From: an uncultured Actinomycetes bacterium
Lineage (GTDB): Bacteria; Actinomycetota; Thermoleophilia; Gaiellales; Gaiellaceae
Length of the DNA: 40,000 nucleotides
Assembly (NCBI GenBank): GCA_963765455.1
Contig: CAVXWH010000002.1
Coordinates: 430,893-470,892 of the forward strand
Direction: 5' to 3'
A program made the position numbers and the translations under genes. This document shows, piece after piece, positions 4,529-25,812 of the stretch. The stretch's first letter is position 1. Each line of letters begins with the position of its first letter. The notes under the pieces are model-generated. The model was not told the DNA's origin. It searched no databases and saw nothing but the letters and a program-made list of their open reading frames with translations.

Positions 4529-6929
4529 CGAGCTCACGCCTGTAGCGGGCGAGCTTCTCACGCTCGGCCTCGACGACCTCGGCTCGCGCGCGCTCGACAA
4601 AGCTCGGATTGGAGAGCATCTTCTCGCAGCGGGCGATCTCCGAGCTCAGGCGTCCTGTCTCGGTCTCGATGCTGACCGCTTCGATCTTCATCCGCTCGGG
4701 CTTGACGACCGCCTGGAAGATGCGCTCCGCGTCGTCCGGGAGGCTCACGTGCAGGCCACTCCTGCGGAAGATTGCGGCGGCGTCCTGAACCCGCTCGAGC
4801 GCGTTCGCGTCGGCCGCGAAGCGAGTATCGGCCTCCGGCCAGGGCGAGACGATCAGGCGGGCCTTGCGCGTCGGCAGGTTCGACCAGATCTCCTCGGTCA
4901 CGTGCGGCATGACCGGGTGCAGCAGCGCGAGCAGCCGCTCGAGCGCAGCCAGCGCCGTCGAGCGGGCGTCCGCATCGCCGGCGTAGAGGCGCGGCTTGAT
5001 CGCCTCGGCATACCAGTCGCAGAACTCGTCGAAGGTCACGTGGTAGAGCCGGGTCACGACTCCGGCGTAGTCGAAGGCGGCGAAGCACTGCTCGATCTCG
5101 GCCCGCGCCGCTTCGAGCCGGGCCAGGATCCAGCGCTCGACGACCTCGCCGGGCCGCCCGTCGGGCTCCTCGTCGCCGACGTTGGCGAGAATCAGCCGGG
5201 AGACGTTCCAGAGCTTGTTGGCGAGCTTGCGCCCTTCTTCGACGGCACCGTAGGAGAAGCGCACGTCCTGGCTGGAGGACATCTTGAGCAGGCCGTAGCG
5301 AACCGCGTCGGCGCCGTGCTCGGCGATCACCTCGAGCGGGTCGATGCCGGTGCCGAGGCTCTTCGACATGCGCCGGCCGTCGGTGGCCAGCACGGTCGAG
5401 TGGATGACCACGTCGCGGAACGGCACCTCACCGAGCAACTCCAGCCCGGAGAAGATCATCCGGTTCTCCCAGAGGCGGATGATCTCACGCGCCGTCGTCT
5501 GCAGGTCGCCAGGGTAGAAGGCACGCAGATCGTCTGTCTCGTCGGGCCAGCCGAGCGTGGCGAACGGCCACAGCGCCGAGGAGAACCAGGTGTCGAGCAC
5601 GTCCTCGCTGCGGGTCAATACCGCCGAGCCGCACTCCGCGCAGTTGCCGGGCTCGCTCTCCTCGACCGTCAGGTGACCGTCGGAGCACTCCCAGATCGGA
5701 AGCTGGTGGCCCCACCAGAGCTGGCGTGAGATGCACCAGTCGGGCGCCTCCTCGAGCGACTCGATCGCGAAGCGGTGCTGGGACTCGGGATGAAAGCGAA
5801 CGCGCCCCTCGCGCAGCGCCTCGAGCGCCGGCTTCTTCAGCTCCTCCATCGAGCACCACCACTGCAGCGAGACACGAGGCTCGATGCGCGTCTCGCAGCG
5901 CTCGCAGAGGGCGACCGCATGACGGAAAGGCTCGCGGGAGACGAGCAGGTCGCGTTCCTGGCACCAGGCGAGAATGCATTCGGTCGCCTCGTCCTGGGTC
6001 AGCCCGGCGAGCTCCGGGATCTCGTCGTTCATCAGCCCGTCGGGGCCGATCACGCTCGGCTCACCCAGCCCGTGCGCGCGCCCGATCTCGAAGTCGACGG
6101 GATCGTGGGCGGGCGTGATCTTGAGCGCCCCGGTGCCGAACTCGGGATCGACGTGCTCGTCGGCGATCACCGGCACGCGCCGCTCGACGAGGGGCACGAT
6201 CACCTCCTGACCGACGAGATCGCTGTAGCGCTCGTCGTCCGGGTGCACCGCAAGCGCGACATCGGCCGGGATGGTGGCCGGGCGCACGGTGGCGATGGCG
6301 ACGTGGCCGGAGCCGTCGGCGAGCGGGTAGCGAATGGTGACGAGCTCGTCGTCCGCATCGATGTGCGCCAGCTCCAGGTCGGAGAGCGAGGTCTGATGGA
6401 AGGGGCACCAGTTGATGATGCGGTTGTCGCGATAGATCCAGCCCTTGCGGTAGAGATGGACGAAGAAGCGCAGCACCGCGCGGGTGTAGCCCTCGTCCAT
6501 GGTGAAGCGCTCGCGCCGGTAGTCGAGCGAGGCGCCGATGCGCCGGAACTGGGTCATGATCTTGCCGCCGTACTCGTGCAGCCACTCCCAGACACGCGCC
6601 TCGAAGGCTTCCCGCCCGAGCTCCTGGCGCGTCGTTCCCTCGGTCGCGAGGTACTTCTCGACCGCGTTCTGAGTCGAGATGCCGGCGTGGTCGTAGCCGG
6701 GCTGGAAGAGCACGTTGAAGCCCTGCATCCGCTTCATGCGCACGATCGAGTCGCCGAGTGCCAGCTGGAGCGCGTGGCCTATGTGCAGCTCACCGGTGAC
6801 GTTGGGCGGAGGATGGGCGTTGACGAAGCTCGGGCGCTTCGAATCGGGATCGGCGTTGTAGAGGCCCTCTTCTTCCCAGGCCTTCTGCCAGCGCTGCTCG
6901 ACGCCTGCGGGCTGGTAGAGCGGCTCCAT
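4512..6929 (-). CDS. valS: Valine--tRNA ligase
   Basis: 805 aa with the class I HIGH motif (PPPNVTGELHIGHA), the KMSKS motif (RRMSKSLG), an editing-domain region and a C-terminal coiled coil. Confidence 0.95.
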   Translation of the reverse strand: MEPLYQPAGVEQRWQKAWEEEGLYNADPDSKRPSFVNAHPPPNVTGELHIGHALQLALGDSIVRMKRMQGFNVLFQPGYDHAGISTQNAVEKYLATEGTTRQELGREAFEARVWEWLHEYGGKIMTQFRRIGASLDYRRERFTMDEGYTRAVLRFFVHLYRKGWIYRDNRIINWCPFHQTSLSDLELAHIDADDELVTIRYPLADGSGHVAIATVRPATIPADVALAVHPDDERYSDLVGQEVIVPLVERRVPVIADEHVDPEFGTGALKITPAHDPVDFEIGRAHGLGEPSVIGPDGLMNDEIPELAGLTQDEATECILAWCQERDLLVSREPFRHAVALCERCETRIEPRVSLQWWCSMEELKKPALEALREGRVRFHPESQHRFAIESLEEAPDWCISRQLWWGHQLPIWECSDGHLTVEESEPGNCAECGSAVLTRSEDVLDTWFSSALWPFATLGWPDETDDLRAFYPGDLQTTAREIIRLWENRMIFSGLELLGEVPFRDVVIHSTVLATDGRRMSKSLGTGIDPLEVIAEHGADAVRYGLLKMSSSQDVRFSYGAVEEGRKLANKLWNVSRLILANVGDEEPDGRPGEVVERWILARLEAARAEIEQCFAAFDYAGVVTRLYHVTFDEFCDWYAEAIKPRLYAGDADARSTALAALERLLALLHPVMPHVTEEIWSNLPTRKARLIVSPWPEADTRFAADANALERVQDAAAIFRRSGLHVSLPDDAERIFQAVVKPERMKIEAVSIETETGRLSSEIARCEKMLSNPSFVERARAEVVEAEREKLARYRRELDALSD

Positions 6930-8432: not shown

Positions 8433-9734
8433 GTGAGCGAGGCGAAGAGAGCGAAAGAGACTGATGCCGGGGCCAGGCGCCGATTCGGCGGGCGCGCCTG
8501 GCTGGCCCCCGCAGCGGCCGCGTTCGCCTTCCTCGGCCCGGGCCTGATCTCGGCGAATGCCGGTAACGAGGCCGGCTCGATCGCCACCTACGCCTCGGTG
8601 GGCGCCCGCTACGGCTACGACCTGCTCTGGCTGATGGTGCTGATCACCATCAGCCTGATCATCGTCCAGGAGATGGCGGCGCGGGCCGGAGTGGTCAGCG
8701 GCAAGGGGCTGACCGAGCTCGTTCGCGAGCACTACGGCGTGCGCTGGTCGGCTCTGGCGATGGTCTCGATCCTGTTCGCCAACCTGGCGATCACGATCTC
8801 GGAGTTCCTCGGCATCGGCGTCGCCTGCGCCCTGCTCGGCATCCCGCGGGCGGTGGCGATCCCGCTCGCCGCTGTCGCGATCTGGCTGATTCTCGTTCGT
8901 GGCTCCTACCGCGTCGCCGAGCGGGTGTTCATCGCCTTCACGGTCGTCTTCTTCGCCTATCCCGTGGCAGCGATACTTGCTCATCCTCATTGGGGCTCTA
9001 TCGGTCACCACGTCCTACTGCCGCATTTCCACCCGACCTCTCAATACGTGCTGCTGGTCGGCGCCGTCGTCGGCGCAACCATCACTCCTTTCATGCAGCT
9101 CTACCTGCAGTCGGCCGTCTCGGAACGGGGCACACCGGTCGAAGAGCTGCGGCGCGAGCGCGTAGACGTGGCGACCGGTGCGATCTTCGCCAATCTCGTC
9201 GCCGCCTTCGTGATCATCGCCACCGCCGCCGCCCTGCACGAGCACGGCATCACCAAGGTCGGCTCGGCCGCCGACGCGGCGAAGGCGCTGCAACCGTTCG
9301 CCGGCCGATTCGCCAAGGAGCTCTTCGCACTCGGCCTGCTCGGCTCCAGCCTGCTCGCGGCGGCGATCTTGCCGGTTACCGTCGCCTACGTGCTGTCGGA
9401 GGCTTTCGGGATGGAGAAGGGGATCGGACGCAGCTATCGCCAGGCGCCGGTCTTCGTGGCCACGATCACGACCCTGATCGTGATCAGCGCCGCCGTCGCA
9501 CTCATCCCGCAGCTCCCGGTCATCTCCTTCCTGGTCGGCATCCAGGACCTGAACGGGGTGCTGCTTCCGATCACCCTCTTCTTCCTCTGGCGCCTGTCGA
9601 GCAACCGCGAGCTGATGGGGCGCTGGCGCAACGGGCGCATCTTCAACGCCGCCGCGGCGCTGACCGTCGTCGCGGTCTCGGCGCTATCGCTGTTGCTGAT
9701 CGTGGTCGCCGTGGCCCGTGTTCTCGGCGTCTGA
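8433..9734 (+). CDS. mntH: Nramp-family divalent metal cation transporter
   Basis: 433 aa and polytopic. It carries the Nramp signature region GPGLISANAGNEAGSIATYASVGARYGYDLLWLMV. Confidence 0.88.
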   Translation: MSEAKRAKETDAGARRRFGGRAWLAPAAAAFAFLGPGLISANAGNEAGSIATYASVGARYGYDLLWLMVLITISLIIVQEMAARAGVVSGKGLTELVREHYGVRWSALAMVSILFANLAITISEFLGIGVACALLGIPRAVAIPLAAVAIWLILVRGSYRVAERVFIAFTVVFFAYPVAAILAHPHWGSIGHHVLLPHFHPTSQYVLLVGAVVGATITPFMQLYLQSAVSERGTPVEELRRERVDVATGAIFANLVAAFVIIATAAALHEHGITKVGSAADAAKALQPFAGRFAKELFALGLLGSSLLAAAILPVTVAYVLSEAFGMEKGIGRSYRQAPVFVATITTLIVISAAVALIPQLPVISFLVGIQDLNGVLLPITLFFLWRLSSNRELMGRWRNGRIFNAAAALTVVAVSALSLLLIVVAVARVLGV

Positions 9735-9817
9735 GGCACTGAGACCTCCGGATCGAGAGGCTGGGGCACTTCTCTCTACGCCCGCCACCGATCCACCCGC
9801 CCGCGCGGTTATCCGAA

Positions 9818-9831
9818 GATACCGTCTGTTC
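9818..9831. repeat. Left copy of the putative target-site duplication (GATACCGTCTGTTC; unambiguous core ATACCGTCTGTT)
   Basis: An identical 14-mer recurs at 25799-25812. Each copy abuts the outer end of an inverted repeat. Confidence 0.75.
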
Positions 9832-9864
9832 GGGTTAAGAGACAGGCGCCTTCGAAACGCGCAC
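9831..9864 (+). repeat. Left terminal inverted repeat
   Basis: CGGGTTAAGAGACAGGC-GCCTT-CGAAACGCGCAC compares with the reverse complement of the right end, CGGGTTAAAAGACAGGC-CAGC-CGAAACGCGCAC. The outer 17 nt have 1 mismatch, a 4-5-nt variable spacer follows, and the inner 12 nt are identical. Confidence 0.8.
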
Positions 9865-10114
9865 GGGGGGTGGCTCCTCAGTCCTCCTCGGCTATCGCAA
9901 TCGCTACGAGCACACTCGATGTTGCATCGTGACGAAGTCCGGTCTAGAGCAGGGCTCTACACTCTGGATTGTGGACGCACAAGACGTCGGGCCAGAACAG
10001 AACCCGATTACCGGACGAGAAATAACGGCGCATGCCGATGCAGCGTCCAGCGGGTTCGTCCTCGCCGACCAGCCGCTCGAGCTTTACCGGGCACTGGCGG
10101 GGTAGGATTCGCGG

Positions 10115-10702
10115 GTGGCGGTCTGGTATCTCGGGGCTCGGATAACACTTGCTGACTCCCGAAATCCAGAGCGCATTCCGCAGGCCGCTCATAGCATCCG
10201 CGAACTAATGGACGAGCTGTATGTGATTCTCGACCTGCCTTCGGAGGCCAAAGACGGCGACAATTTGGGGAATCGGTTCGAAGTAATGACCACGCGGTGG
10301 GAAAAGGCGAAAAGATTGAGCAGCGCGTGCGTCGAGGGCACTTGGTCGGGAGAGATCGACGATCCGGCGCGATTGGGTTTCGATGCTATAGATGCGGCCA
10401 TCGAGTGGCGCAGGGTCAACCGCCCGAAACGAGAGGAGACCTCGCGCGCCACGATCAGAGCGCTGGATATATCGAAGCGTGCCCTTCCGACTTGGATCGA
10501 GGACACACACGTTAAGGCGTGGAACGACCTGCGAGACTACTTCGTAAGGGTGTGCCATCACGGGCGCGAGACCGACATCGCCGAGTTCGAGGCGGCCGTA
10601 TACGAATTCGAGCGATTTGTGCTCGATCGGATGAAGCCGCGCACCTATAGGGAGCACGTGAGTCTTGAGCAACTGATCGCGGAGGCTGAAAGTGGCGCTT
10701 GA
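10115..10702 (+). CDS. Hypothetical protein (195 aa), first gene of the cargo pair
   Basis: GTG start immediately after an in-frame TAG. Its end overlaps the next gene by 11 nt. It is AT-richer than the flanking chromosome. I recognise no family. Confidence 0.6.
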   Translation: MAVWYLGARITLADSRNPERIPQAAHSIRELMDELYVILDLPSEAKDGDNLGNRFEVMTTRWEKAKRLSSACVEGTWSGEIDDPARLGFDAIDAAIEWRRVNRPKREETSRATIRALDISKRALPTWIEDTHVKAWNDLRDYFVRVCHHGRETDIAEFEAAVYEFERFVLDRMKPRTYREHVSLEQLIAEAESGA

Positions 10703-13514
10703 CCCCAAGCTTGTCGATCGTGCACTTTCTGAGGCTACGAAGCGAGCCGAGAACCTCGATTTCTTCTTCGACAACTTAAAATCGTCGGATTGGATTGAGC
10801 CCCTTCGCGCGAAAGGCTTGTTTTCGGAACCTCCTCGGCAGTACGTCGATGATGAGAGGCTTGTCCGTGCTCCCTCTTGGTCGGCGTCTCGCTATCTCGC
10901 ACGAGTCTCAGCAGTTGCGCCTCAGCTTGTGCTTGAGGTCATCGAGTCGACCGAGACCAATAACGAGCGGGTTCTAGAGGACTTCATTGATGCTGCTGTC
11001 GTAATGCCCCCCGAAGAGGCGTCGCGCATTGCCGTACTCGTAGCGGCGTGGGTTAGCGAACGCGACAATGTCTATTACGGACTCCCGAGTAAGATTGTCG
11101 ATCTAGTCGTCAAGCTAGCCCGCGACGGCCAGCCTGAAGTGGGCATTCGCCTCATGCGTTCTCTCTTCGCGCCCCAGCCCGATGAGCGCGAGCAAGTTTT
11201 ACGCTCGAGCCCGCGGGCTCGTTTTTCGGGATGGGAATATGACACTCGTCTGCGCAAGATAGTGAGCGAGGCGCTTCCGATCGCGCCGAGCTTGTTTCTC
11301 GATGCACTTGCCGAGCTACTCGCAGATGCGCTCAAGTACCTGCGTGAAATCTCCGACCGCGATAACGATGATCTTTCGCGCGTCTGGCGCGTTCACATTA
11401 GAAACGATCGTGACAGGGGAACGGAAGTCGAGGAGGCGCTTACGTCAGCTGTCCGAGACGCGGCAACCGAGATTCGGACTCGGGAGCTTATGAACGACTT
11501 CGATTTGGTAGCGCTGTTGACCGCTCGACCGGAGGAGCTATTCCGACGTATTGCAATGTACGCACTGAGCCAAGAGCCAATGGCTGACCTCGACGTGGTG
11601 TTACCGTTCGTGGTGGACGTCTCCGAGCTTATTGAGGCAGAGCCGAGCCCGGAGTTCCGCGAACTACTCAGAGCGACAGCCGAGCGACTGGATTCCGACC
11701 ATATCGAGCACCTCGTTACGGCGATCTTCGCCGGACCCGATGTCGATCAGTACCGCGAACTTGCGAAGCACTTCGATGGGGTGTGGCCCACAGACGAACA
11801 GACGAGCGCACATGTCGCACGGTGGAGGATCGGACGTCTCGCATTGATCAAGGACGCGCTGCCAGCTGAAACGCGAAGCACGTACGACGCTCTTGTTGCG
11901 GAATATGGTGAAGCTGACATCCCGCTGAGCTGGGAGATTCGTACTTTCAGTGGTCCAAACAGCCCTATCTCTGCCGACGAGCTCAGCGCGATGTCGAACG
12001 ACGAACTGATCTGCTACCTGCGCGACTGGAAACAACCTGAGGGGTTTGGAGAACCATCTGTTGAAGGGCTCGCGCGAGCGATGTCAGTCGTTGCCGAGAG
12101 GGATCCGATGCGTATTAGCCGTCTGGCACCGAGGCTGCGCGACCTCCGGCCGGCATACGTCCAGTGGATTCTTAATGGCTTCGAAGGAGCGATCAGAGAA
12201 CAGCGCAGCTTTGACTGGCCGACGCTTCTCGACATCCTTACTTGGATTGCTGAGCAGCCGCGCGAGATTCCGGGCGGGCGCGGTGACGAATACAGCGATA
12301 TCGATCCCGGCTGGGTTTGGGCGAGGCGCGAAATCGCCGGCCTCCTCGAACGCGGACTCAGCGATCGAGGCGCGTGCGCCATTCCGTTTTCGGAGCGAGA
12401 GCGCGTATGGAATGTAATCACCGCGGTGAGCGAGGATCCCGATCCGACTCCAGAGCATGAGCAGCAGTACGGAGGCCAGAACATGGACCCCGCGACGCTC
12501 GCGCTCAACACTGCACGCCCTCGCGGTCTACGTGCGGCAGTTGCGTATTCGATCTGGGTTTATCACGCGTTGCTTGGAGAGGATGAGCGCTCGATCGGAG
12601 GTTTCTTCGCGGCTCATGCGCCCGAGGCTGCGGTTCTTCTCGAGGCGCATCTCGATCCCCAAGGTGACCCATCGACTTCAGTGCGTGCTGTCTATGGGCA
12701 GTTCTTTGCCAATCTCTTCGCCGTCGATCGGGCTTGGGCGAAAAAGGTTGCCGAAACCGTGTTCCCGGACGAAGACTCAGCGCTTCGTGAAGCAGCTTGG
12801 GGTGCATACGTGATCTACACACGGCCGTACGATGACTTACTGGCCCTGCTCTGTCCTGCGTACCTACGTGCAGCCCAACACGCTCGATCTGACGGTCATG
12901 GCTTCCGATGGATGAACGGCATCCCATCGGAGAAGCTGGGCGAGCACGTCGCAGCCTTTTTTTGGCGCGGTTTGCTCAATATCGACGACCCCCTGATAAG
13001 CGTCTACTGGAACAACGCGTCCGCCGACGCTCGCGGTCACATGATCGAGTTCTTCGGGCGTTCGCTACGCGAAGCGGAGCAGCTCGATCCTGAGATCGAG
13101 AAGAGGCTTCGGGAGTTCTGGGAATTCGCGAAGCGGAACGTACGAAAGGGCGATGTCCCTACTGAGCTCGGCAGCTTTTGTTGGTGGTTCGTTGGAGACA
13201 CGCTTCCACTCGACTGGCGATTCGAGCAGATGATCATAGTGCTGAGCGAGAAAGTTCAGCCACGCGCCGCTTTTCTCGTTGCCGAGAAGCTACCGTCAGT
13301 GGCTCAACAACACCCTCTGCTCGCTGTTCGAGTTCTTCGCCTTTTGCTTCAAGATGCGGAGGTATGGTCGGTAGACGCGTGGCGCAAGGAAATCGAGTCG
13401 GTGCTCCGCATCGCCTACTCCGCCAACGGGGAGGCGCGTGATCTTGCCGAGGAGACGCTGAACTGGCTACTTGCGCTGGGCCACCGGTCTTTCCGTAACG
13501 TGGTCGAGGCTTGA
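10692..13514 (+). CDS. Large (940 aa) predicted all-alpha repeat (HEAT/ARM-like) protein of unknown function
   Basis: Long uninterrupted ORF with Leu/Ala/Glu/Arg-rich helical character throughout. I see no P-loop, nuclease or other catalytic motif. It overlaps the 195-aa gene. Confidence 0.7.
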   Translation: MALDPKLVDRALSEATKRAENLDFFFDNLKSSDWIEPLRAKGLFSEPPRQYVDDERLVRAPSWSASRYLARVSAVAPQLVLEVIESTETNNERVLEDFIDAAVVMPPEEASRIAVLVAAWVSERDNVYYGLPSKIVDLVVKLARDGQPEVGIRLMRSLFAPQPDEREQVLRSSPRARFSGWEYDTRLRKIVSEALPIAPSLFLDALAELLADALKYLREISDRDNDDLSRVWRVHIRNDRDRGTEVEEALTSAVRDAATEIRTRELMNDFDLVALLTARPEELFRRIAMYALSQEPMADLDVVLPFVVDVSELIEAEPSPEFRELLRATAERLDSDHIEHLVTAIFAGPDVDQYRELAKHFDGVWPTDEQTSAHVARWRIGRLALIKDALPAETRSTYDALVAEYGEADIPLSWEIRTFSGPNSPISADELSAMSNDELICYLRDWKQPEGFGEPSVEGLARAMSVVAERDPMRISRLAPRLRDLRPAYVQWILNGFEGAIREQRSFDWPTLLDILTWIAEQPREIPGGRGDEYSDIDPGWVWARREIAGLLERGLSDRGACAIPFSERERVWNVITAVSEDPDPTPEHEQQYGGQNMDPATLALNTARPRGLRAAVAYSIWVYHALLGEDERSIGGFFAAHAPEAAVLLEAHLDPQGDPSTSVRAVYGQFFANLFAVDRAWAKKVAETVFPDEDSALREAAWGAYVIYTRPYDDLLALLCPAYLRAAQHARSDGHGFRWMNGIPSEKLGEHVAAFFWRGLLNIDDPLISVYWNNASADARGHMIEFFGRSLREAEQLDPEIEKRLREFWEFAKRNVRKGDVPTELGSFCWWFVGDTLPLDWRFEQMIIVLSEKVQPRAAFLVAEKLPSVAQQHPLLAVRVLRLLLQDAEVWSVDAWRKEIESVLRIAYSANGEARDLAEETLNWLLALGHRSFRNVVEA

Positions 13515-13528
13515 ACGTGAACAAATCG

Positions 13529-16500
13529 TCACTGGTCATGCTCCTCTAGCCGAGTCCACTTGTGCCTCGCAGCGAGCCTCGTAAGGCAGCCGCGGGCACG
13601 CGCGTGCGGCCTCGCCCCCGCGCGAATGCGTGTCAACGTGCTCGGACTAATCCCAGCCTCGGCCGCCGTCTCCCGAACGTTCATCTCGCGCAGCACCGGC
13701 AATATGAGCGTCTCCCACTCCTCGTCGAACACGTTCCGATATTCGACTAGCACATCTCCTTCGCCGGCAATCAAGCCCGCCGCGACCTCCTCGATCAGGT
13801 TCGCCTCCTTTCCGACGTGCGTGATCGAGAGCGCGCGAACCGGTCGACGCGAGAGCAGCCCTATCGTCCGACGCCCGCACCGCTGCCCGTCTAGGGCGAG
13901 GCTCTTCGCCTCCGGCCGCACGCGATAAGCATCGAGTACGTCTCGATATGTCTTCACGCCGACGACGTCGGGCGGAAGCGCGATCCCACCCGTCTCGATC
14001 GGCGAGCGGCCGAGCCGGTATGTAGGCCCCGATGGGTCGTAGACGTTCCGCCAGGGAAGATGCTGCCATCGGCGCGGATCGGGCTCATAGGGAGCAACTA
14101 ACGCGAACCTTTTCGGATCGGTGCCGATCGGATAACCGCCTGGAGCCACGTGGGCCACGAGCAGGAATCCGTGCGGCTTGATCTGCTCGGCGTACGTCTT
14201 GCTCTCGTTCAGTCCCTTGAAGGGTCGAAGCAGGCGCGGATGCGAGGCCGAAAACTGCGAGAGCGCCGGTCGATCCAGCCAGGGCGCATCTCTCGAAGGA
14301 AAACCGAAGACGTCCGTGCGCACGATTTCCTCCCACACATCCCGCGTCCAGTCGCGTTTTCCACGCCTCTGATCCTCTTTGTCGGGATCGAGCGGATTCA
14401 GGTAGAAGCCACCCAGCGCGTGCTCCGACCACTTGACGAGCTTCGGAGCGCAGGACGAATCGAGCGTGTAGAGGCAGTAGCGCTTGGCGCTAATCGCGAA
14501 GCAGACGAGCTCGCGCTGCTCGCCGGTCTCGGGATCGAAGTTCTCGGGCTCAGCTCTCAAGATCGAGCCGGGCACAAGTGAGCGGTCATAGGGATTGAGC
14601 GCCCCGAAACGCTCCGAGATTCGACCGACCTCTTCCCAGGGAAGCGCGCGAACACATTCCTGCCCCTGCCGATCGATCTCGGGTCCGCCTGCGCAGGGAA
14701 CGAGCCCACCCTCTTTCGTTGACACGATCGCCATCGAGTCGGTGTCGCAGAAGGCGTAAGTACCGCCCGCCTCAGTCACGGAGCATTCGAGCAGGGCCAG
14801 CATTAGCCGCGCAGCTCCGGTGACGAAAGCGGCAATGGGCGAGAAGAAAAACTCCCCGGAATCCTCTACCGCTGACACCTCCGCTTCGAACTGATCGAGC
14901 CCGAAGACAGTGACCGGTGATGGCTCAGCCCGCGATTCCTGGCGATTCAGTTCGGCGAAGATGCCGTAGGAGCCCGAGTTCGCGACCGTCTTGAGGCCAT
15001 TCGCGGATCTCTCGGACTCTGGGTCGCCGAGTTGCTCGAGCCGGCGGCGCTCCTCGACCATCGCCCGGAAGACATCCTCTGTCGTTGGATCGATCGCTCT
15101 CGAGCCGCGGACGGTGAAGGGACGGATACCTGCCGCGCGCCCAACCGGCGCCAGCCGAATGCAGCGGAGGATCTTGGGCGTTTTCCCTGTGACGACGCGT
15201 GAGGTAAGCACGTCTGCGAGCGTCAGCCAGACCGGCTTGCCCGAAAAGAACGGATTGACGCCGATCCCGTAGGAGCCGCCCTCTGAGTAGCGGGCGCGCA
15301 CCGGGAGGATGTCGCCGTTCGGCTGGACGAGAACGAGCGCCGTCAGCCTTGGCCAGAGTCGCTGATCGAAGCAACTACCCAGGCTCTGCCGGAAAAGCCA
15401 GCGCTCGATCGTTACCGGGTCTTCTTCGGCGACCTTGACCCGCGCGCAGATGAGAAAGCGAGAGAGCTTCATCAGTGCGCAGACGGTCGGGTACATGCTG
15501 CGGAAGTCGAGCAGCGTAATCGGAACCGGGGTCCTCCTGATTCGACACTCGGCGCGGCCACCGAAGTAGGCGACCATGCCGTACCCGAGCACCTCCCGAG
15601 AGAAGCTCGGTTGGCGTGCAAGAAGAGGTCGGATTCCGGTCTCTCGTAGAGTTGCCTTGACGAGACTTGCCGGCGAGTAGGTCCTGGTCGGGGCTAGCTG
15701 CAGGTGCCAGCGCTCGTACTCGGTCGCGAGCGCCTGGTAGAGAGAGGCCGTCGCCGCCACATCCTCGCAGCAGTAGTCGACCAGCTCGGTGCTGATTCGT
15801 CCCAGTTCGACCTCACGCTTGACGTAGTCGATACCGAAGGCTCCACAGGCCGATTCAAGCGTGTGCGCCTTGCCGCTCAGCGCATAGGAAAGCGTACGCA
15901 GATCGAGGAACGCTCCCCGACCGCGACGCTTGGCATCGGGATCCGAGCCCGGCCGAGCGCTTCCGAGCCCGATGCGAGCACGCTTGGAGTCGAGCGAGCG
16001 GATGAGCAGCCGCGGGTGAAAGCGGCTCTCGCGCTCGTCGCCATGCTCGTCTGTCCACATCACGCTCTTAAGTGAGAAGCCGCCCTCGAAGCCTCGCGCA
16101 CGCGTCTCTCCCCAGCCGGCGGCGAGCCGGGAAAGGTCGAAGGGCAGGTTGAAGCCAACGACCGTCGCCTTTGCGCTCAGAGCTGGGATCAGGACTTTCG
16201 AGACGAGGGCTGAGCGACTGCGAAGCGAGAAGGCACGACCGGAGTCACGCACGTTTCTGTCGATCGCTGACTCGTGCTCTTCGACGTAGCGCTCGAGCAG
16301 AGCGAGTCCGTTCGGGTCGAGCGTCGGGAGGTCGTCTCCGTAGACGAGGCCCTCATCGACGCAGACAAGCTCTGGCCCAACCTCGCTCCAGCGCAAGCGG
16401 ACGTAGCGGTAGCAGGCAACGAGGAGTCTCTGTGCCGGGTCTATCGTCGTCTCGCAGTCGAGCACGAGAATCGAGTGCGGCCGGCGGGCGGGATCCTCCC

Positions 16501-16621
16501 GGCGCCTTCGCTTCTGAGCCAGCTTGCCTTTGGCGGGCTTGCGCTGCGCTGGCTCCCCCTGAGCTTTGGGAACGGCGTAGGCACGTACGGCGATCGGGAG
16601 TGAATCGGGTTCTCGGGTCAT
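13529..16621 (-). CDS. polB: Family-B DNA polymerase (1030 aa) with 3'-5' exonuclease domain and C-terminal HTH
   Basis: Exonuclease motifs: ExoI ILVLDCETT, ExoII VVGFNLPFDLSRL and ExoIII YCCEDVAATASLY. Polymerase motifs: PolA LLDFRSMYPTV, PolB KTVANSGSYGIF, PolC YAFCDTDSMAIV and the KxY region ISAKRYCLY. The C-terminus carries an HTH-like segment, RETAAEAGISPSTLTRIRAG. Confidence 0.92.
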   Translation of the reverse strand: MTREPDSLPIAVRAYAVPKAQGEPAQRKPAKGKLAQKRRRREDPARRPHSILVLDCETTIDPAQRLLVACYRYVRLRWSEVGPELVCVDEGLVYGDDLPTLDPNGLALLERYVEEHESAIDRNVRDSGRAFSLRSRSALVSKVLIPALSAKATVVGFNLPFDLSRLAAGWGETRARGFEGGFSLKSVMWTDEHGDERESRFHPRLLIRSLDSKRARIGLGSARPGSDPDAKRRGRGAFLDLRTLSYALSGKAHTLESACGAFGIDYVKREVELGRISTELVDYCCEDVAATASLYQALATEYERWHLQLAPTRTYSPASLVKATLRETGIRPLLARQPSFSREVLGYGMVAYFGGRAECRIRRTPVPITLLDFRSMYPTVCALMKLSRFLICARVKVAEEDPVTIERWLFRQSLGSCFDQRLWPRLTALVLVQPNGDILPVRARYSEGGSYGIGVNPFFSGKPVWLTLADVLTSRVVTGKTPKILRCIRLAPVGRAAGIRPFTVRGSRAIDPTTEDVFRAMVEERRRLEQLGDPESERSANGLKTVANSGSYGIFAELNRQESRAEPSPVTVFGLDQFEAEVSAVEDSGEFFFSPIAAFVTGAARLMLALLECSVTEAGGTYAFCDTDSMAIVSTKEGGLVPCAGGPEIDRQGQECVRALPWEEVGRISERFGALNPYDRSLVPGSILRAEPENFDPETGEQRELVCFAISAKRYCLYTLDSSCAPKLVKWSEHALGGFYLNPLDPDKEDQRRGKRDWTRDVWEEIVRTDVFGFPSRDAPWLDRPALSQFSASHPRLLRPFKGLNESKTYAEQIKPHGFLLVAHVAPGGYPIGTDPKRFALVAPYEPDPRRWQHLPWRNVYDPSGPTYRLGRSPIETGGIALPPDVVGVKTYRDVLDAYRVRPEAKSLALDGQRCGRRTIGLLSRRPVRALSITHVGKEANLIEEVAAGLIAGEGDVLVEYRNVFDEEWETLILPVLREMNVRETAAEAGISPSTLTRIRAGARPHARARGCLTRLAARHKWTRLEEHDQ

Positions 16622-17085
16622 GGTTTTGCCTCCGGTAGGTCTCGCCAGCTTGGGTCCTTGTGGTCGAGCGCCTCTTCGAGCGCGATCCTTTGAACCGCTT
16701 CCCGTTCTTCCGCCTCAGCGAGATCGCGGAAGAGAGCCGCACGGCTTTGACGCGCTCCCGCCTGGCGCGTGAGGACGCTACGGTCACCAGTGTGAGAGAG
16801 ATCGACGCCCTCGTCGTGTTGGTGCGCGGTTCTGATCGCGTGGCAGTTCTTGCAGAGCGGCACGACCAAGTCCGGATCGTTCGCATCGCCCGAGACGTGA
16901 TCCCCATCGATGAAGCTCCGTAGAACTGGGATCAAGACTTCGGGCGCGGTGATCCCGCAGAGGATGCAGGCAGCGTCCGGAGGTAACTTGCTTCGCTTGC
17001 GTGCACGTCGCCGATCGTTCGCTATCGGATTCGGCCCTGCGCGGCGTGAGCCCGCGGCCCGCTTGTGCGCTTGCTGGCCGCTCAT
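16618..17085 (-). CDS. HNH endonuclease
   Basis: The motif CILCG...DGDHVSGDANDPDLVVPLCKNCHAIRTAHQH is a His-Asn-His fold with flanking Cys pairs. It has ATGA overlaps with both neighbouring genes. Confidence 0.85.
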   Translation of the reverse strand: MSGQQAHKRAAGSRRAGPNPIANDRRRARKRSKLPPDAACILCGITAPEVLIPVLRSFIDGDHVSGDANDPDLVVPLCKNCHAIRTAHQHDEGVDLSHTGDRSVLTRQAGARQSRAALFRDLAEAEEREAVQRIALEEALDHKDPSWRDLPEAKP

Positions 17086-17684
17086 CTCGTCAGCTCGTAG
17101 ATGTCTTCGATCTCGAGTTCGCCGCGGCGCTCCCAGAGATCGATCGAGGCAGGATCGGTTTCAAGCTCGATTCCGGCGACCCGCTTTCCGCGCAACTTGC
17201 GCAAGCGGGAATCGTCCCCGGTCTTGAGGTAGTGACCGATCGCCGACCAGTGCTCGCCGACCATCGACGCAGCTCTGGAGCCGCGAACGCTCACTTCGTG
17301 CTCGACCCCGTCTCCGCCGAGAACGGTCATGGGGCGGAAGAGACGATCGGAGGGTTTCGCTCGGTAGCGATTTCCTGCGAAATCGAGCGCCTGGCCGGCG
17401 TGTCGAACTACGGCGCCGGGAGTCGTACCGGCTCTTCGCGCAGCTTTCGAGAGCGAGAGCCCGTCTTCGCGCATGCGGTTGAGCGCGTCCAGAGCGGCAC
17501 GTCGTGTCTCTTTCTCGATTGGACTCAGCGCCGTGAGTTGGCGAATGCCTCTAACCGGCTTCGGTGCGCGTCGCCAAGCCGACCAGGAGGAGTAGCCCTT
17601 GCGCTGCGCTAGGGCGTTTCGGTACTGCCGCTCGCTGGAGAAGGTTTGTCCGGCGAAGATGCCTTTCTTCGGAGTGAAGGTCAT
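17082..17684 (-). CDS. Hypothetical protein with a central helix-turn-helix (200 aa)
   Basis: HTH-like segment LSLSKAARRAGTTPGAVVRH. It shares ATGA start/stop overlaps with the methyltransferase upstream and the HNH gene downstream. Confidence 0.6.
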   Translation of the reverse strand: MTFTPKKGIFAGQTFSSERQYRNALAQRKGYSSWSAWRRAPKPVRGIRQLTALSPIEKETRRAALDALNRMREDGLSLSKAARRAGTTPGAVVRHAGQALDFAGNRYRAKPSDRLFRPMTVLGGDGVEHEVSVRGSRAASMVGEHWSAIGHYLKTGDDSRLRKLRGKRVAGIELETDPASIDLWERRGELEIEDIYELTR

Positions 17685-19075
17685 CGCTCGGCCCTCCCGT
17701 CCGCGCCAATGAGTGCGGCGTAGCGAGCGCGAACGAGGTCGCAGTACTTGGGCTCTAGCTCGAGCGCGTAGCAGCGCCTACCCGTCAGTTCGCAGGCGAC
17801 GAGCGTCGATCCAGCTCCGGCGAAGGGATCGATGACGATGTCACCGGGATCCGTCAGAGCTTCGATGTAGGCCTTCGGAAGCTCAACCGGGAAAACGGCT
17901 GAGTGATCCCAACGACGAGTCTCTTTACGCTCTCCCGGCAGGGCCAGGACGGAGCCGATCGGCCTGCTCGGGAGTGTGATCAAGGGCGGGCTCGTTCGAA
18001 GAGTCCCGTCTGCCTGCCGGCGAGTTGTCGTGGTGAGCTTCCCGGCGCTAGCGTTCGGGACGGTGCGAAAGAGCCGCCTAGGCTCTCGACCGAAGACGAG
18101 AAGCCACTCGTGTTGCGGCGGGAAGAAATCGTCCCGCCCGCGCGGTTGAGCGCCGCTCGCCCCCTTGTCCCAGACATTCCAGGCAAGGAAAGAGAGCCCG
18201 GCTTGCTCTGCCGCCTCGATATAGCCGTCCCAATAGCGAACGACGGAGTGATCTCTTCTGACAAGGCCAAGGTTGACGACGATTAGCTCGGCGTGCTCGG
18301 CGAAGATTGGCAAGAACTTCGCCAGGTAGTCGACCGACAGATCCTGCCCCCCGCCGAACATGCGCACGTCGAGATAAGGCGGCGATGTGAAGAGAAGCGC
18401 CGCCTTCTCTCCATCCATCAGCCGCGATGCGTCTGTAGCGCTCGTCGCGTCGCCGCAGAGTAGGCGATGCGCTCCGAGCCGATAAAGCCCGCTCGCCTTC
18501 GACGGAGGCGAGATGATTGGAGCCGCCTCAGGGGCTTGAGGCTCGAAGGCGGTGATCGGCTCACGGCAGAAGGCCTCGCGCGCAAGCCGCTCAGATACTG
18601 CCTGCCGCACGATCTCGGCCGTGAGGCGGTCGCCGTGCTCGGCGCGAAGCTCACGGCAGGTCTCGATGAGGGCGGCTTCGTTTCCTAGAAGCGGCGTCAG
18701 CTCCCGAGCCTGGCCGACGTTACTTGGACCAATTGGTCCGACTATCTCGACCACTTCCGAGGCGGCGATCGTTCGGTTTGCATGGCGCGCCGACATGCCC
18801 CAGCGCTCGCGGCAGTAAGCCTCGAAGGTCGTGTGCGTTTCTCGATACAGACGGGAGTCACGGATCTCCAGGAGCGCCCGGCCGACAACGACAAACGCTT
18901 CGAACCCCTCTTCGACGATCTGCTCTAGCTCAGTAAGACGAGAGCGCTCATCAGGCGCCAGGGGTGACTCGACTGTGGAACGAACGAGCGGCTGGGCCGG
19001 CGGAAGATCTTGGCGCTCTTCTCCCCGCTCGCTCATGCGCTGTCGCTCTTCTCGTCCAGAAGCTGCTCGAGTCAT
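17681..19075 (-). CDS. Orphan beta-class N6A/N4C DNA methyltransferase with an N-terminal DNA-binding-like domain
   Basis: Motif IV FTSPPY precedes motif I VIDPFAGAGSTLVACELTGRRCYALELEPKY, which is the permuted beta-class order. The N-terminal ~130 aa is a helical domain (LYRETHTTFEAYCRERWGMSARHANRTIAASEVV) of a kind seen fused to phage and plasmid methylases. No cognate restriction enzyme gene is nearby. Confidence 0.85.
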   Translation of the reverse strand: MTRAASGREERQRMSERGEERQDLPPAQPLVRSTVESPLAPDERSRLTELEQIVEEGFEAFVVVGRALLEIRDSRLYRETHTTFEAYCRERWGMSARHANRTIAASEVVEIVGPIGPSNVGQARELTPLLGNEAALIETCRELRAEHGDRLTAEIVRQAVSERLAREAFCREPITAFEPQAPEAAPIISPPSKASGLYRLGAHRLLCGDATSATDASRLMDGEKAALLFTSPPYLDVRMFGGGQDLSVDYLAKFLPIFAEHAELIVVNLGLVRRDHSVVRYWDGYIEAAEQAGLSFLAWNVWDKGASGAQPRGRDDFFPPQHEWLLVFGREPRRLFRTVPNASAGKLTTTTRRQADGTLRTSPPLITLPSRPIGSVLALPGERKETRRWDHSAVFPVELPKAYIEALTDPGDIVIDPFAGAGSTLVACELTGRRCYALELEPKYCDLVRARYAALIGADGRAER

Positions 19076-19220
19076 CGGAGAGTCTCCGAAGGACAGAAAC
19101 AGGCTGGAAAGCCAGTGCGGTTTCTGAAGGGTTTCTGCATGTACCCTTCAGCGTGCCTGAGAGAGAGCTATCTGTCACTGGTAGCGGAATGCAAATACGG
19201 CACGACCGGCGGTGTTGCTG

Positions 19221-19226
19221 TATAAT
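19221..19226 (+). promoter_or_regulatory. Candidate -10 box (TATAAT) in the divergent intergenic region of the element
   Basis: A perfect TATAAT lies 37 nt upstream of the ATG at 19263, in the only clearly AT-richer gap between the divergent operons (19076-19262). I found no convincing -35 box. Confidence 0.3.
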
Positions 19227-19262
19227 CAGCGTGATGCGCCGGTTGATTGCAAAGTAAATGAG

Positions 19263-20360
19263 ATGACGAGCGAGCCCCTTGAGATCGATCGACGGCTAGC
19301 CGAGGCTGCATCGGAGCTTGGCGCCGCGGTCTCAGCGCGGCAGGTCAAACGCTGGCGAGAGGCCGGGCTACTACCTACGCGAAAAAAAGGGCTGGGACAA
19401 GGGCTTGGGTCGGCTCCGGCGGAGTTCTTGCCGGGCGCGGAGAAACACGCGGCCTGCCTCGCTCAAGCACTGAAAGACCGTCGCAAGCTGGATGAGGCCT
19501 GCCTCGTCTGCTTCTGGCGGGGCTTCTCTCCCAGAGAGCGCAGGCTCAAGCTTGCGTACGCCAAGCAGTTCAGGCTCCTCTCTGATTGGCTCGAGCACGT
19601 CAGTAGCGCCTCGAGTCCTCAGGCCAAGACCCAGAAGGCTGGCCGTATACTCTCGCGCCGCTCGGCCGGCCACCCAGCGGTGCAAGCGATGCGCGCGCGG
19701 CTAAAGTCAGAAGGCAAGGGGACTCCCTTCTCCAGAGTGCTCTCCAACGCTCTCGGCCCGTTGCTCGGAATCGCGAGCCCACTCCGGCGCGAGACGCTCC
19801 TGGCTTTGGGTGCCGAGGGTCTTCTCACCCCGATCGAGGACGAAGGACCGCTCGCCGAGCCGGACGATCTCCGCCTCGATTGGCTAAAGCTGTCCCGCCT
19901 CGCCGAGGCCGTCGAGAACTCCGTGTTGACCGAGCTGGAGCAGGCGCGGGACGCCTTCCGCTTTCTCTTCTCGTTCACGATCGACTTCGCGTCTCTCGCC
20001 GCGCGAGGCTACGGCCTCAAGGTCGGTCGCCTCAGAGAGTTTCTTCCCAACGAGCTGACCTGCGCGCTCTTAGGTATCCCGACGATGCTCATCTTCCGAG
20101 CGCTCTGGGGCAAGGAGCATCTCGACAGTCGCATCGAGGAGCTTCGCCGCCTGTATCCGCAAGTTCAGGCTCAAAACCGTTTTCTCGACGCGCTTCCGAG
20201 TAAGTGGCATCCGTTCGCCGCCCCGAACGGCTCCATCCGGCTTGCCGCCGCACCCGACGACGAGCGCCAAGCGCTCGTCGAGTTCGTTCAGGAGTGGGCG
20301 GCCGAGCATCCCGAAGACGTAGCCCTAATCACTGAAACGCAAGAGGTGAACGAGACCTAG
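19263..20360 (+). CDS. Hypothetical protein with an N-terminal MerR/excisionase-like HTH
   Basis: I prefer ATG 19263 (MTSEPLEIDRR...) over the track start at 19212. The N-terminal segment VSARQVKRWREAGLLP resembles MerR/Xis-type HTHs. The rest has no recognisable motif. Confidence 0.6.
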   Translation: MTSEPLEIDRRLAEAASELGAAVSARQVKRWREAGLLPTRKKGLGQGLGSAPAEFLPGAEKHAACLAQALKDRRKLDEACLVCFWRGFSPRERRLKLAYAKQFRLLSDWLEHVSSASSPQAKTQKAGRILSRRSAGHPAVQAMRARLKSEGKGTPFSRVLSNALGPLLGIASPLRRETLLALGAEGLLTPIEDEGPLAEPDDLRLDWLKLSRLAEAVENSVLTELEQARDAFRFLFSFTIDFASLAARGYGLKVGRLREFLPNELTCALLGIPTMLIFRALWGKEHLDSRIEELRRLYPQVQAQNRFLDALPSKWHPFAAPNGSIRLAAAPDDERQALVEFVQEWAAEHPEDVALITETQEVNET

Positions 20361-20430
20361 ATAGGAACAAGAAGCCCCCGCGACTGCTCTAACAGCCCGG
20401 GGGCGTGGCACACGGAAAGGATGTTTCCGC

Positions 20431-20799
20431 ATGCAACTCAAAGGTAACGAAGTCCAGGTCGCCTGGCGCGTTCTTCGCTTCATCCTCATCTGCGTCGTGT
20501 CGGCGCTCGTTCTCGGGACAGCGCTCGTCTTCTCGCTCTTTTCCGCCCTGACATCGGGATCTCGCGGTAGGAGGAGCCACCCTGAACTGATCGTGGCCGC
20601 AGCGCTTGCCATCGTGTATGCGCTCTGGCGGAGACGAGACGCTGGCTGGCATGCCTGCGGCCAGTGCGGCGTCCCGATCGAGCCACCCTCAAGAGTGGAG
20701 TACTGCTCGCCGAGCTGTCGCCGCTACGCCCGGCTCCAGCGGGAAGCGTTCGATCGTCGGGCTGAGACTCTCGCCTCCTATGGGGAGGTGCCGTTCTGA
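20431..20799 (+). CDS. Small two-pass membrane protein with a C-terminal FCS-like zinc ribbon
   Basis: Two hydrophobic helices are followed by CGQCGVPIEPPSRVEYCSPSCRRY. Its TGA overlaps the Cas1 ATG by 1 nt (TGATG). Confidence 0.6.
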   Translation: MQLKGNEVQVAWRVLRFILICVVSALVLGTALVFSLFSALTSGSRGRRSHPELIVAAALAIVYALWRRRDAGWHACGQCGVPIEPPSRVEYCSPSCRRYARLQREAFDRRAETLASYGEVPF

Positions 20800-22178
20800 T
20801 GGCGACTTCGATAGATCGCGCCAGGGAAGCCGAGCGCGACCACAGCTCCGTTCCTGCGCAGCTCCGTAGACGCGGGAGCGCCACCGTTGTCGATGGCTTC
20901 GGAGCAGTGCTTCAGGTCGAGCGCGGACGACTCGTCGTCTTGGACGGCGCAGGTAGAGAGAGAAGGGAACGAAACTTCGGCCGGGTCGGAGACTCGATCG
21001 CTCGGGTGGTCGTGCTCGGCGGGACGGGCTCGATCTCGCTCGCAGCGCTTCGCTGGCTTGCCGACCAGGGGATCCCCCTGCTTGCGCTCGATCGCGAGAG
21101 CCGCCTGCTCTGCGTCTCCGTCCCTCCAGCGACGAGCGATGCGCGGTTGCGAAGGGCGCAAGCGCTTGCAGCAACGAATGAGGCGGGGCTCGAGATTGCG
21201 CGTTATCTACTGTGCGAGAAGCTCCGCGGTCAGCGCGAAGTGCTGCTCACGCTCAACCCAGACGAGAGATTAGTCAGCGCCTTCAACCGGGCTTTCCGTT
21301 GGCTGGAAGCGACCACCGACACGAACGAGCTGATGATGGCCGAGCGGGACGCCGCGCTCGCCTACTGGACAGGGTGGAGAGATGTCGAGATCAGTTTCCG
21401 TAAATCGGATGCCGGCCTCGTGCCGCTGTATTGGCGCAGTTTCGGAAAGCGCATTTCACCGCTTACTACGGGACCTCGGCTCGCCGCGAACCCGATCAAC
21501 GCGATCCTGAACTACCTCTACGCAATTCTCGAAGCCGAGACTCGCATCGCTCTTCTCACCGTCGGGCTCGATCCCGTGCTCGGGATCGTCCATGCCGACT
21601 ACAGAGGCAGAGACTCATTCGCGCTCGACGTGATGGAGGCCGCACGGCCGAAGGTCGACGCCTTCGTCCTTCAGCTACTCAGACGCAGGACTTTCAGAGC
21701 CGGCGACTTCTTTGAGACGAGAAAGGGCGCTTGTCGCCTACTTCGCCCATTCACCCATGAGCTGGTGCGAACAGCGCCCGTGTGGGCCGAGCTGGTCGCG
21801 CCGGTTTGCGAGCAGGTAGCGAAGACGCTCGCCGAGGTGCCGGGCTCACGGGTCAAGCGAGTCCTGACTCCGCTGACTCGGTCGAACCACGTCGAGGCCA
21901 GAGAAGCGATACGAAGGCGACCTCGGTCGCAGCTCCGCCTGCCGCTCCCGGAGAAGGTCTGCAAGAACTGTGGCGGGGAGCTTCCGAGACGCGAGCGCGT
22001 CTACTGCGATGCTTGCTACTCGCAGCTCGACTTCCACACGAAGAAGCGTTGTAAGCGCTGCGGCGGAAGGGTTCCGAACCGGAAGCGGGTGTACTGCGAT
22101 TCGTGTCTCGCCGATCACCCGCGCAAGCGGCGTATTCAAGCGGGGGATTGTCAGTGCAGTAGAAAGCCCCGGCTATGA
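20799..22178 (+). CDS. cas1: Cas1-family integrase (putative casposase) with two C-terminal zinc ribbons
   Basis: The N-terminal beta-domain pattern is VVLGGTGSISLAALRWLADQGIPLLALD. The catalytic core is MAERDAALAYW...ANPINAILNYLYAILEAETRIALLTVGLDPVLGIVHADYRGRDSFALDVMEAARPKVD, giving the Cas1 Glu/His/Asp-Glu pattern. The C-terminus carries CKNCGGELPRRERVYCDACY and CKRCGGRVPNRKRVYCDSC. Confidence 0.9.
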   Translation: MATSIDRAREAERDHSSVPAQLRRRGSATVVDGFGAVLQVERGRLVVLDGAGRERRERNFGRVGDSIARVVVLGGTGSISLAALRWLADQGIPLLALDRESRLLCVSVPPATSDARLRRAQALAATNEAGLEIARYLLCEKLRGQREVLLTLNPDERLVSAFNRAFRWLEATTDTNELMMAERDAALAYWTGWRDVEISFRKSDAGLVPLYWRSFGKRISPLTTGPRLAANPINAILNYLYAILEAETRIALLTVGLDPVLGIVHADYRGRDSFALDVMEAARPKVDAFVLQLLRRRTFRAGDFFETRKGACRLLRPFTHELVRTAPVWAELVAPVCEQVAKTLAEVPGSRVKRVLTPLTRSNHVEAREAIRRRPRSQLRLPLPEKVCKNCGGELPRRERVYCDACYSQLDFHTKKRCKRCGGRVPNRKRVYCDSCLADHPRKRRIQAGDCQCSRKPRL

Positions 22179-25766: not shown

Positions 25767-25799
25767 GTGCGCGTTTCGGCTGGCCTGTCTTTTAACCCG
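25767..25799 (-). repeat. Right terminal inverted repeat
   Basis: GTGCGCGTTTCGGCTGGCCTGTCTTTTAACCCG is the inverted partner of 9831-9864. Confidence 0.8.
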
Positions 25800-25812
25800 A
25801 TACCGTCTGTTC
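25799..25812. repeat. Right copy of the putative target-site duplication (GATACCGTCTGTTC)
   Basis: Identical to 9818-9831 and immediately outside the right TIR. Confidence 0.75.

Follow-up and report, generated by a model that had tools for sequence, protein, structure and literature searches.

A casposon of a Gaiellaceae bacterium carries a gene pair that is likely a split anti-phage module with a Dsr1-type sensor

We analysed a 40,000-nt stretch of DNA (the window) from an uncultured bacterium of the Gaiellaceae (Actinomycetota; assembly GCA_963765455.1, contig CAVXWH010000002.1, positions 430,893 to 470,892), which harbors a casposon with two overlapping genes just inside its left end. The genes encode a small protein and a large protein of 940 amino acids (aa) and are referred to here as the pair. 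It is likely that this pair is a split, two-gene anti-phage module of the Dsr1/Avs7-sensor class, carried by the casposon as variable cargo, in which an uncharacterised all-alpha output domain replaces SIR2. The pair comprises the following features:

10692..13514, + strand: large gene with GTG start, intact (product P0002), encoding a 940-aa alpha-solenoid of the Dsr1/Avs7 sensor type (PADLOC Dsr1, NCBIfam Dsr1, AlphaFold2)
10681..10685, + strand: ribosome-binding site GGAGG, within the last part of the small gene and 6 nt ahead of the GTG that starts the large one (sequence)
9971..10702, + strand: full ancestral frame of the small gene, about 243 codons from the GTG at 9971, broken at codon 45 (the read-through translation aligns over its full length with 246-aa homologues)
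10103..10105, + strand: premature in-frame TAG in the small gene (genome sequence; the same TAG in Logan contig L095, CAG in L094)
10115..10702, + strand: 195-aa open reading frame with GTG start, the part of the small gene past the stop (AGGA 7 nt upstream of the GTG)

The large protein is homologous to the sensor of Dsr1. Dsr1 stands for defence-associated sirtuin 1 and was reportedly treated by Gao et al. in 2020 and by Garb et al. in 2022. The PADLOC profile of Dsr1 (PDLC04166) matched the large protein with an E-value of 3.8e-31, and residues 211–811 aligned to positions 530–1094 of the 1,227 positions of the profile. A second PADLOC model for Dsr1 gave an E-value of 3.8e-10. The match to the NCBIfam family Dsr1 (NF041818) had an E-value of 2e-17 and its alignment began at profile position 584. 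The part of Dsr1 that is matched is the region past the SIR2 domain, i.e., the sensor. Neither the small nor the large protein contained a SIR2 domain in searches with Pfam, NCBIfam, and PADLOC, and the large protein matched no Pfam family. Direct scans of both proteins with Pfam and NCBIfam revealed nothing beyond weak signals for Dsr1 and for the family pP_pnuc_1, which is discussed below. AlphaFold2, supplied with an alignment of 34 sequences, predicted about 50 helices and an all-alpha fold for the large protein, as had been proposed in the initial annotation of this DNA, with a mean predicted local distance difference test score (pLDDT) of 89.5 and a predicted template modelling score (pTM) of 0.57. 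This pTM together with the high pLDDT fits two mobile lobes and does not demonstrate them. A Foldseek search with the model returned generic long alpha-solenoids only (karyopherins, CAND1, the Avs4 sensor) with template modelling scores of 0.2–0.3. At E ≤ 1e-3 the large protein had 44 full-length homologues.

The large protein is obligatorily paired with or fused to a partner. As stated in the initial annotation, the open reading frames 10115–10702 (195 aa) and 10692–13514 (940 aa) lie on the + strand and overlap by 11 nt. The identical 11-nt overlap was present in metagenome contigs with genes for 246 aa and 941–948 aa. A scan of one genome per species resulted in 80 loci with full or partial homologues of the large protein, and the hosts belonged to Actinomycetota, Cyanobacteria, Acidobacteriota, Chloroflexota, Planctomycetota, Proteobacteria, Methanothrix, Methanosarcinales, and others. 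The two parts also occur together elsewhere, a point that the initial annotation had proposed to check: the small domain was encoded directly upstream on the same strand (about 47 loci) or formed an in-frame fusion with the sensor (about 21 loci) in 68 of the 77 loci with upstream sequence, a count that is partly circular, since the profile was made from 56 diverse small-domain sequences that include many of those tested. A narrower profile, built from close homologues only, had already found the small domain in about 43 of these loci. The fused proteins have a length of 1,100–1,230 aa. We concluded that the small domain and the sensor act as one unit because the same two parts undergo fusion and fission, which is strong evidence.

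In five loci lacking the small domain (L009, L011, L047, L058, L063), a stand-alone SIR2_2 gene was located directly upstream of the sensor gene (E-values of 2e-9 to 2e-15). The SIR2_2-partnered sensors are 31–33% identical to the large protein over the full length (L009, L011) or 24–31% identical (L058, L047, L063). In three further loci from metagenome-assembled genomes (MAGs) of Actinomycetota (L042, L064, L080; P0043), the small domain is replaced by an N-terminal thioredoxin-like region of 688 aa that is fused to the sensor. This region consists of PF03190 DUF255 and Thioredoxin_7 and would be an unusual candidate output module. We calculated a tree of 64 sensors with FastTree, rooted with the genuine split Dsr1 of one genome (G139) and excluding six sequences with internal stops. 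SIR2-partnered sensors appeared in two separate places, inside or beside clades of sensors partnered with the small domain (local supports of 0.97–1.0), while the thioredoxin group arose once. The exchange for SIR2, together with the tree, led us to conclude that the small domain sits in the effector slot of Dsr1 and that this slot was refilled more than once. As to the Dsr1 genes themselves, the one used as root (L102/L112, G139:C22) consists of two genes, one for SIR2 (336 aa) and one for the sensor (1,047 aa), and another genome has a Dsr1 copy full of stop codons (G424; L103/L113, G424:C46).

The pair resembles Dsr1 in its large helical sensor, homologous over about 600 residues (the PADLOC match with the E-value of 3.8e-31), in size (about 1,180 aa for both proteins together, compared to 1,227–1,275 positions for the Dsr1 profiles), and in order, with the output module N-terminal or upstream and the sensor C-terminal or downstream. 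It differs in that SIR2 is missing and an unrelated all-alpha domain is present instead, in having two overlapping genes, in its score (62 versus a cut-off of 1400 bits), and in the long tree branch between its family and the genuine split Dsr1. The pair is thus not Dsr1, given the missing SIR2 domain, the score under the family cut-off, and the division into two genes. Depletion of NAD+ by the pair is not expected because there is no SIR2 domain. The two-gene cassettes of SIR2 and a Dsr1-type sensor (L009, L011, L047, L058, L063, and G139) share gene order, tight coupling, and sensor family with the pair and differ in the upstream gene, which encodes SIR2_2 and not a small all-alpha protein.

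The system is less uncharacterised than the initial annotation assumed, as the Dsr1/Avs7 class of sensors has been described and its trigger identified (PMC13581612; 2026, Nature). That study reports homology between the sensors of Dsr1 and of the STAND protein Avs7, and the link of our large protein to Avs7 rests on this statement, direct homology having been computed for the Dsr1 sensor only. The sensor of Avs7 is a bilobed, TPR-like solenoid, which is sharply bent and envelops the major capsid protein of the phage; this protein is the target that triggers both E. coli Dsr1 (EcDsr1) and Salmonella Avs7 (PMC13581612). The sensor occurs in defence proteins with and without STAND, whose N-terminal domains are of many kinds, among them a "HEPN-like RNase" in a Streptomyces protein and several "unknown" ones, and split genes were also considered (PMC13581612). 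The pair fits this pattern of a sensor with varied N-terminal domains and differs from Avs7 by the lack of a STAND NTPase. A similar logic applies to DSR2, which consists of SIR2, a MID domain, and an alpha-solenoid C-terminal domain that binds the tail tube protein of the phage (PMC11850899). Here also an alpha-solenoid sensor controls an N-terminal effector, and the effector is a different one. Searches of the PDB gave no match to DSR2 by sequence or fold, and DSR2 was absent among the 50 best Foldseek matches listed. The sensor family of the pair appears to differ from that of DSR2.

For the trigger, the effector chemistry, and the defence phenotype of the pair we infer a mechanism of the following kind. 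The 940-aa alpha-solenoid would be the sensor and, by homology with the Dsr1 sensor, would most likely bind a phage protein. The sensor half most likely works like the sensor of Dsr1. The small protein, which is encoded just upstream, is translationally coupled, and takes the slot of SIR2, would be the output module, and binding of the target by the sensor would activate it. Our best guess for the chemistry of the small protein is a nuclease, because it has a conserved set of Arg, His, Glu, His, and Asp residues and a remote relation to pP_pnuc_1.

AlphaFold2 predicted an all-helical structure for the small protein, with nine to ten helices and the first 30 residues disordered (pLDDT 83). In an alignment of 56 diverse sequences of the small domain, R77 was invariant, and H74, E78, H196, D233, W184, Y53, and L42 were conserved in at least 90% of the sequences. 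The initial annotation recognised no family for the 195-aa protein; it does belong to one, which comprises 3,540 representative clusters at E ≤ 1e-3 and 734 at E ≤ 1e-30. The sole Pfam family that was matched repeatedly was PF18165 (pP_pnuc_1, a predicted pPIWI-associating nuclease), with 29 of the 56 members at E ≤ 0.1 and a best E-value of 4.1e-5. We collected seven bona fide pP_pnuc_1 proteins from genomes of Actinomycetota, aligned them, and compared them to the small family by hhalign, which gave a probability of 93% and an E-value of 3.4e-7 over 57 columns. Both families share a motif W/Y-x-G-A ... N-P ... H/S-x-x-R-E-L in the first two helices and a later conserved His. The small family is longer by about 100 residues and has inserted helices, and no pAgo is encoded in the window. 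By these sequence comparisons, the relation between the small domain and pP_pnuc_1 is real but local. A text search of the literature found no paper on pP_pnuc_1 or PF18165, and the domain is not described in Burroughs et al. 2013 (PMC3702460).

Other assignments for the small protein were rejected. The window protein has an R68-x5-H74 arrangement as in the Rx4-6H motif of HEPN nucleases, but R68 is not conserved and the motif of the family is H74-x-x-R77-E78. Among the Pfam matches of the 56 members at E ≤ 0.1 there was no family with HEPN in its name, and no HEPN structure was among the Foldseek matches. The "HEPN-like RNase" domain of the Streptomyces protein mentioned above could nevertheless be this small domain. 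An HD domain was discarded as well, as there was neither an HD motif nor a Pfam match. Searches of the PDB sequences with three of our profiles gave only chance matches to designed helical proteins.

About one tenth of the best 150 representatives of the family are longer and have additional N-terminal domains, namely DUF4062 (E 5e-20), DUF4365 (E 8e-15), Schlafen/AlbA_2 (E 8e-6), and a weak Mrr_cat. One such fusion protein (P0125, locus L116) is followed, with an overlap of 8 nt, by a full-length sensor homologue of 953 aa, which is 32% identical to the large protein over the full length. These fusions would fit a small domain that is a transducer or an oligomerisation adaptor, which links a variable effector to the sensor and sits where Avs proteins have their NTPase; the minimal pair would then achieve its output by sequestration of the target or by a recruited host factor. 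In line with such a role, H74 is changed to F or Y in the two nuclease-fused forms, while R77, E78, and H196 are kept. However, an extra domain is missing from about 90% of the best 150 representatives, so that most systems would be effector-less. Furthermore, SIR2, which is a bona fide effector, takes the place of the entire small protein rather than being joined to it, and the set of conserved residues looks catalytic. Because most systems lack another candidate effector and because SIR2 replaces the small protein, we rate the adaptor role below that of an effector and consider it unlikely. A metagenome scan with P0162 gave no match, and a second such scan found the locus of P0125 only. A locus of Nostoc sp. 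(L018:7958-12805) encodes a fused protein of 1,615 aa in which about 430 additional residues precede the small domain.

The small gene is interrupted in the window. The 195-aa open reading frame, which the initial annotation took for a complete gene, is in fact the tail of a gene of about 243 codons (9971–10702) with a stop at codon 45, and it starts four codons past the in-frame TAG (10103–10105). Upstream of this TAG the frame is open and codes for the first helix, which is conserved in the family ("...LADQPLELYRALAG*DSRVAVWYLGARITL"). Another stretch of the reading across the stop is "...GFVLADQPLELYRALAG*DSRVAVWYLGARITL", where homologues have "...GQQLGFYRALAEQDGRVAGWYLGARITL". At the site of the TAG the homologues have Gln, and a few of them Lys, Arg, or Trp. 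Homologues of the small protein are mostly 220–250 aa long. The search of the own genome found a single copy of the small gene, a match that contains "1 TAG". The same TAG is present in an independent Logan contig (L095; 99.96% identity, no indels). A further contig (L094), compared over window positions 9832–20700, reads CAG at this site; it is 99.78% identical and, with seven indels in 10.9 kb, noisy.

Given the premature TAG at codon 45, the defence module is on balance probably inactive or weakened in this genome, unless a re-initiated 195-aa product works or the population holds an intact allele. Formation of the 195-aa product through re-initiation at the GTG at 10115 is possible, given the AGGA 7 nt upstream. 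Whether the module is altogether a dead relic, with the small gene killed by the nonsense mutation and the pair left without any remaining function, is a closer question, and we put its chances just above even. The stop occurs both in the window genome and in an independent contig, and it removes residues 1–48 with the first conserved helix (31–45), which is present in all homologues examined. A short form of the small protein that seemed to be natural (P0080, 196 aa) turned out to be a gene-call artefact, as its frame runs on upstream and encodes the first helix. A frameshifted product of 134 aa (P0053) was also set aside, as it came from the noisy contig with seven indels. On the other hand, the TAG is the only lesion, the large gene is intact, and, apart from the stop, the window protein has the residue shared by all 31 homologues at 21 columns of the family alignment. 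From this agreement and the intact large gene we concluded that the lesion is recent or tolerated. Also the GTG with its AGGA past the stop, and the CAG in the 99.8% identical contig, by which an intact allele may exist in the population, argue against a complete loss of function.

The casposon that carries the pair has the following borders:

9818..9831, strand not assigned: left copy of the target-site duplication (14 bp, casposon boundary), GATACCGTCTGTTC, repeated at 25799–25812
9832..9864, strand not assigned: left terminal inverted repeat, GGGTTAAGAGACAGGCGCCTTCGAAACGCGCAC, which matches the reverse complement of 25767–25798
25767..25798, strand not assigned: right terminal inverted repeat, paired with the left one at 9832–9864
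25799..25812, strand not assigned: right copy of the target-site duplication (14 bp), direct repeat of 9818–9831

The element has a length of 15,967 bp and its terminal inverted repeats are imperfect. We identified it as a casposon because genes for a family-B polymerase (PolB, 13529–16621), a DNA methylase, and Cas1 with zinc ribbons (20799–22178) lie between the inverted repeats and the target-site duplication. The pair lies between the same repeats, together with Cas1 and PolB, and is thus casposon cargo. In this it resembles the cargo genes of bacterial family-3-like casposons, a group that has reportedly been treated by Krupovic et al.: the pair is placed within the inverted repeats and the 14-bp duplication and accompanied by PolB, methylase, and Cas1. 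A description of a Dsr1-type sensor as casposon cargo was not found in the literature by a search that was limited on this point. With 3,400 nt, the pair makes up about 21% of the element, in agreement with the one fifth (3.4 kb) given in the initial annotation, which had also correctly noted that the pair is richer in AT than the chromosome and the rest of the element. The GC content was 0.588 for the pair, 0.619 for the remaining element, and 0.660 for the flanks. At third codon positions the GC content was 0.63–0.69 for the pair, 0.73–0.76 for Cas1 and PolB, and 0.88 for clpX. A scan for promoters and terminators around the pair gave nothing informative.

Apart from the window, only one of the 80 genome loci (L036) had Cas1 or PolB within 10 kb. 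At this locus, on contig CAWFDP010000001.1 of an Acidobacteriota MAG, we found a second complete casposon of about 15.8 kb (L036:6470-22343), with 36-nt terminal inverted repeats at 6491–6526 and 22294–22329 and a 21-nt perfect direct repeat at the ends. Compared to the proteins of the window casposon, the identity is 41% for its Cas1 and 31.5% for its PolB. The pair is intact there (263 and 948 aa, at 9208–12838), and the sensors of the two casposons belong to different clades of the sensor tree. Casposons either acquired the pair on two or more occasions or retained it in two lineages. The genome of the window has two more Cas1 genes related to that of the casposon and a single copy of the pair. 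One of these Cas1 genes (G000:C2:97368-98720, outside the window) is 72% identical and has an internal TGA; the other (G000:C2:998815-999459, also outside the window) is partial and 71% identical. This suggests older or decayed casposon copies without the sensor pair in the same genome. Among 400 genomes sampled from the phylum, four had a casposon-type Cas1, and these were not the genomes with the sensor.

The presence of Cas1 or PolB at just one of the 80 loci, the further Cas1 copies without the pair, and the sample of the phylum led us to conclude that the pair is variable cargo and not a core function of casposons. The same observations argue against a pair that serves the casposon itself, as an accessory of addiction, maintenance, or transposition, and not the defence of the host against phages. 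The position next to the left inverted repeat and the homologous pair in a second, distantly related casposon would fit such a service, which we nevertheless consider very improbable. An additional contig from the European Nucleotide Archive (contig_72687), the noisy L094 mentioned above, has 16,017 bp, a length near that of the element, and its end coincides with the left terminus of the casposon. This contig may represent an excised copy of the casposon or an assembly product of the element only.

The pair is accessory and mobile in its distribution: it is scattered over many bacterial phyla and Methanosarcinales/Methanothrix, its GC content is below that of host and element, and a search of 60 related genomes (completeness 58–100%), including 12 from the same genus, did not find it. 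Its homologues have neighbors with links to defence and mobility. These were SIR2_2 and nSTAND at one locus (L096), an MmeI/Eco57I-type enzyme, an SNF2/PLD helicase, and an Abi_C protein at another (L098), and a DpdE/DrmD-like helicase with a DrmMI-like methylase directly upstream in a Bryobacter MAG (L045). A TIR-domain protein, a resolvase, integrases, and transposases were found elsewhere. PADLOC, applied to 136 genes flanking 23 loci, detected pAgo, MkoB, MADS, AriA, SoFic, and two candidate systems. The guess of the initial annotation that the pair is a defence or conflict system carried by a mobile element is thus backed by the homology to the Dsr1 sensor, the pairing in 68 of 77 loci, the swap for SIR2 in five loci, the defence neighbors, and the 60 relatives in which the pair was not found. 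Alpha-solenoids are generic scaffolds and some neighbors of the homologues are housekeeping genes, which would fit a scaffold protein of ordinary housekeeping function and its small partner. We consider such a function extremely improbable in view of the patchy distribution across phyla, the 60 relatives in which the pair was not found, the location inside a mobile element, the specific similarity to the hidden Markov model of a defence sensor, and the exchange of the partner for SIR2.

Several points weigh against an anti-phage module with a nuclease-like output. The large protein reached 62.2 bits with NF041818, compared to an equivalog cut-off of 1400 bits. The window small protein scored 15.6 bits with PF18165, for which the gathering threshold is 26.3, and all family members remained below this threshold. 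Only the first two helices, including the H/S-x-x-R-E-L motif, align with pP_pnuc_1, and the nuclease label of pP_pnuc_1 is itself just a prediction. Foldseek found no match to the model of the small protein at E ≤ 0.001 in the PDB (best E-value 0.14) or in BFVD, with its predicted viral structures (best E-value 1.0). The effector-type N-terminal domains of the relatives (DUF4062, DUF4365, Schlafen/AlbA_2, Mrr-like) fit the adaptor role equally well. Many of the flanking genes are housekeeping genes, and the tally of defence neighbors is qualitative and has no matched control. Since the small gene is interrupted in the window, a present-day function of this copy is not guaranteed.

A wider proposal, which we make with considerable doubt, is that the small domain represents a new class of immune effectors or transducers with thousands of clusters, switched by a capsid-type sensor without a STAND NTPase or SIR2, and that casposons have repeatedly captured the module (two unrelated casposons in two phyla). 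If this is true, casposons, which are self-synthesising transposons, would be carriers of anti-phage immunity. The presence of the pair in the window casposon and again in one from a different phylum suggests that casposons, like other mobile elements, take part in the spread of defence genes. Sensors of the Dsr1/Avs7 type detect a core phage protein, and the small family offers a candidate output where neither a SIR2 nor a STAND module is present. The domain is very widespread, as seen from its 3,540 clusters, can be swapped with SIR2, and is able to bear nuclease-type, Schlafen-type, and DUF4062 domains. Its activity, once worked out, would extend a well-defined bacterial system of pattern recognition by a new output module. 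Specific to the window are the location in the casposon and the nonsense mutation, and this copy would represent an early step of decay, or of detoxification, through one such mutation.

At two unrelated loci, the one from Bryobacter (L045:2046-12847) and the one with the Abi_C protein (L098:1755-12865), the pair adjoins an SNF2-type helicase and a large methyltransferase of the DrmMI/MmeI type. This suggests a recurrent association of the pair with a restriction or DISARM-like module.

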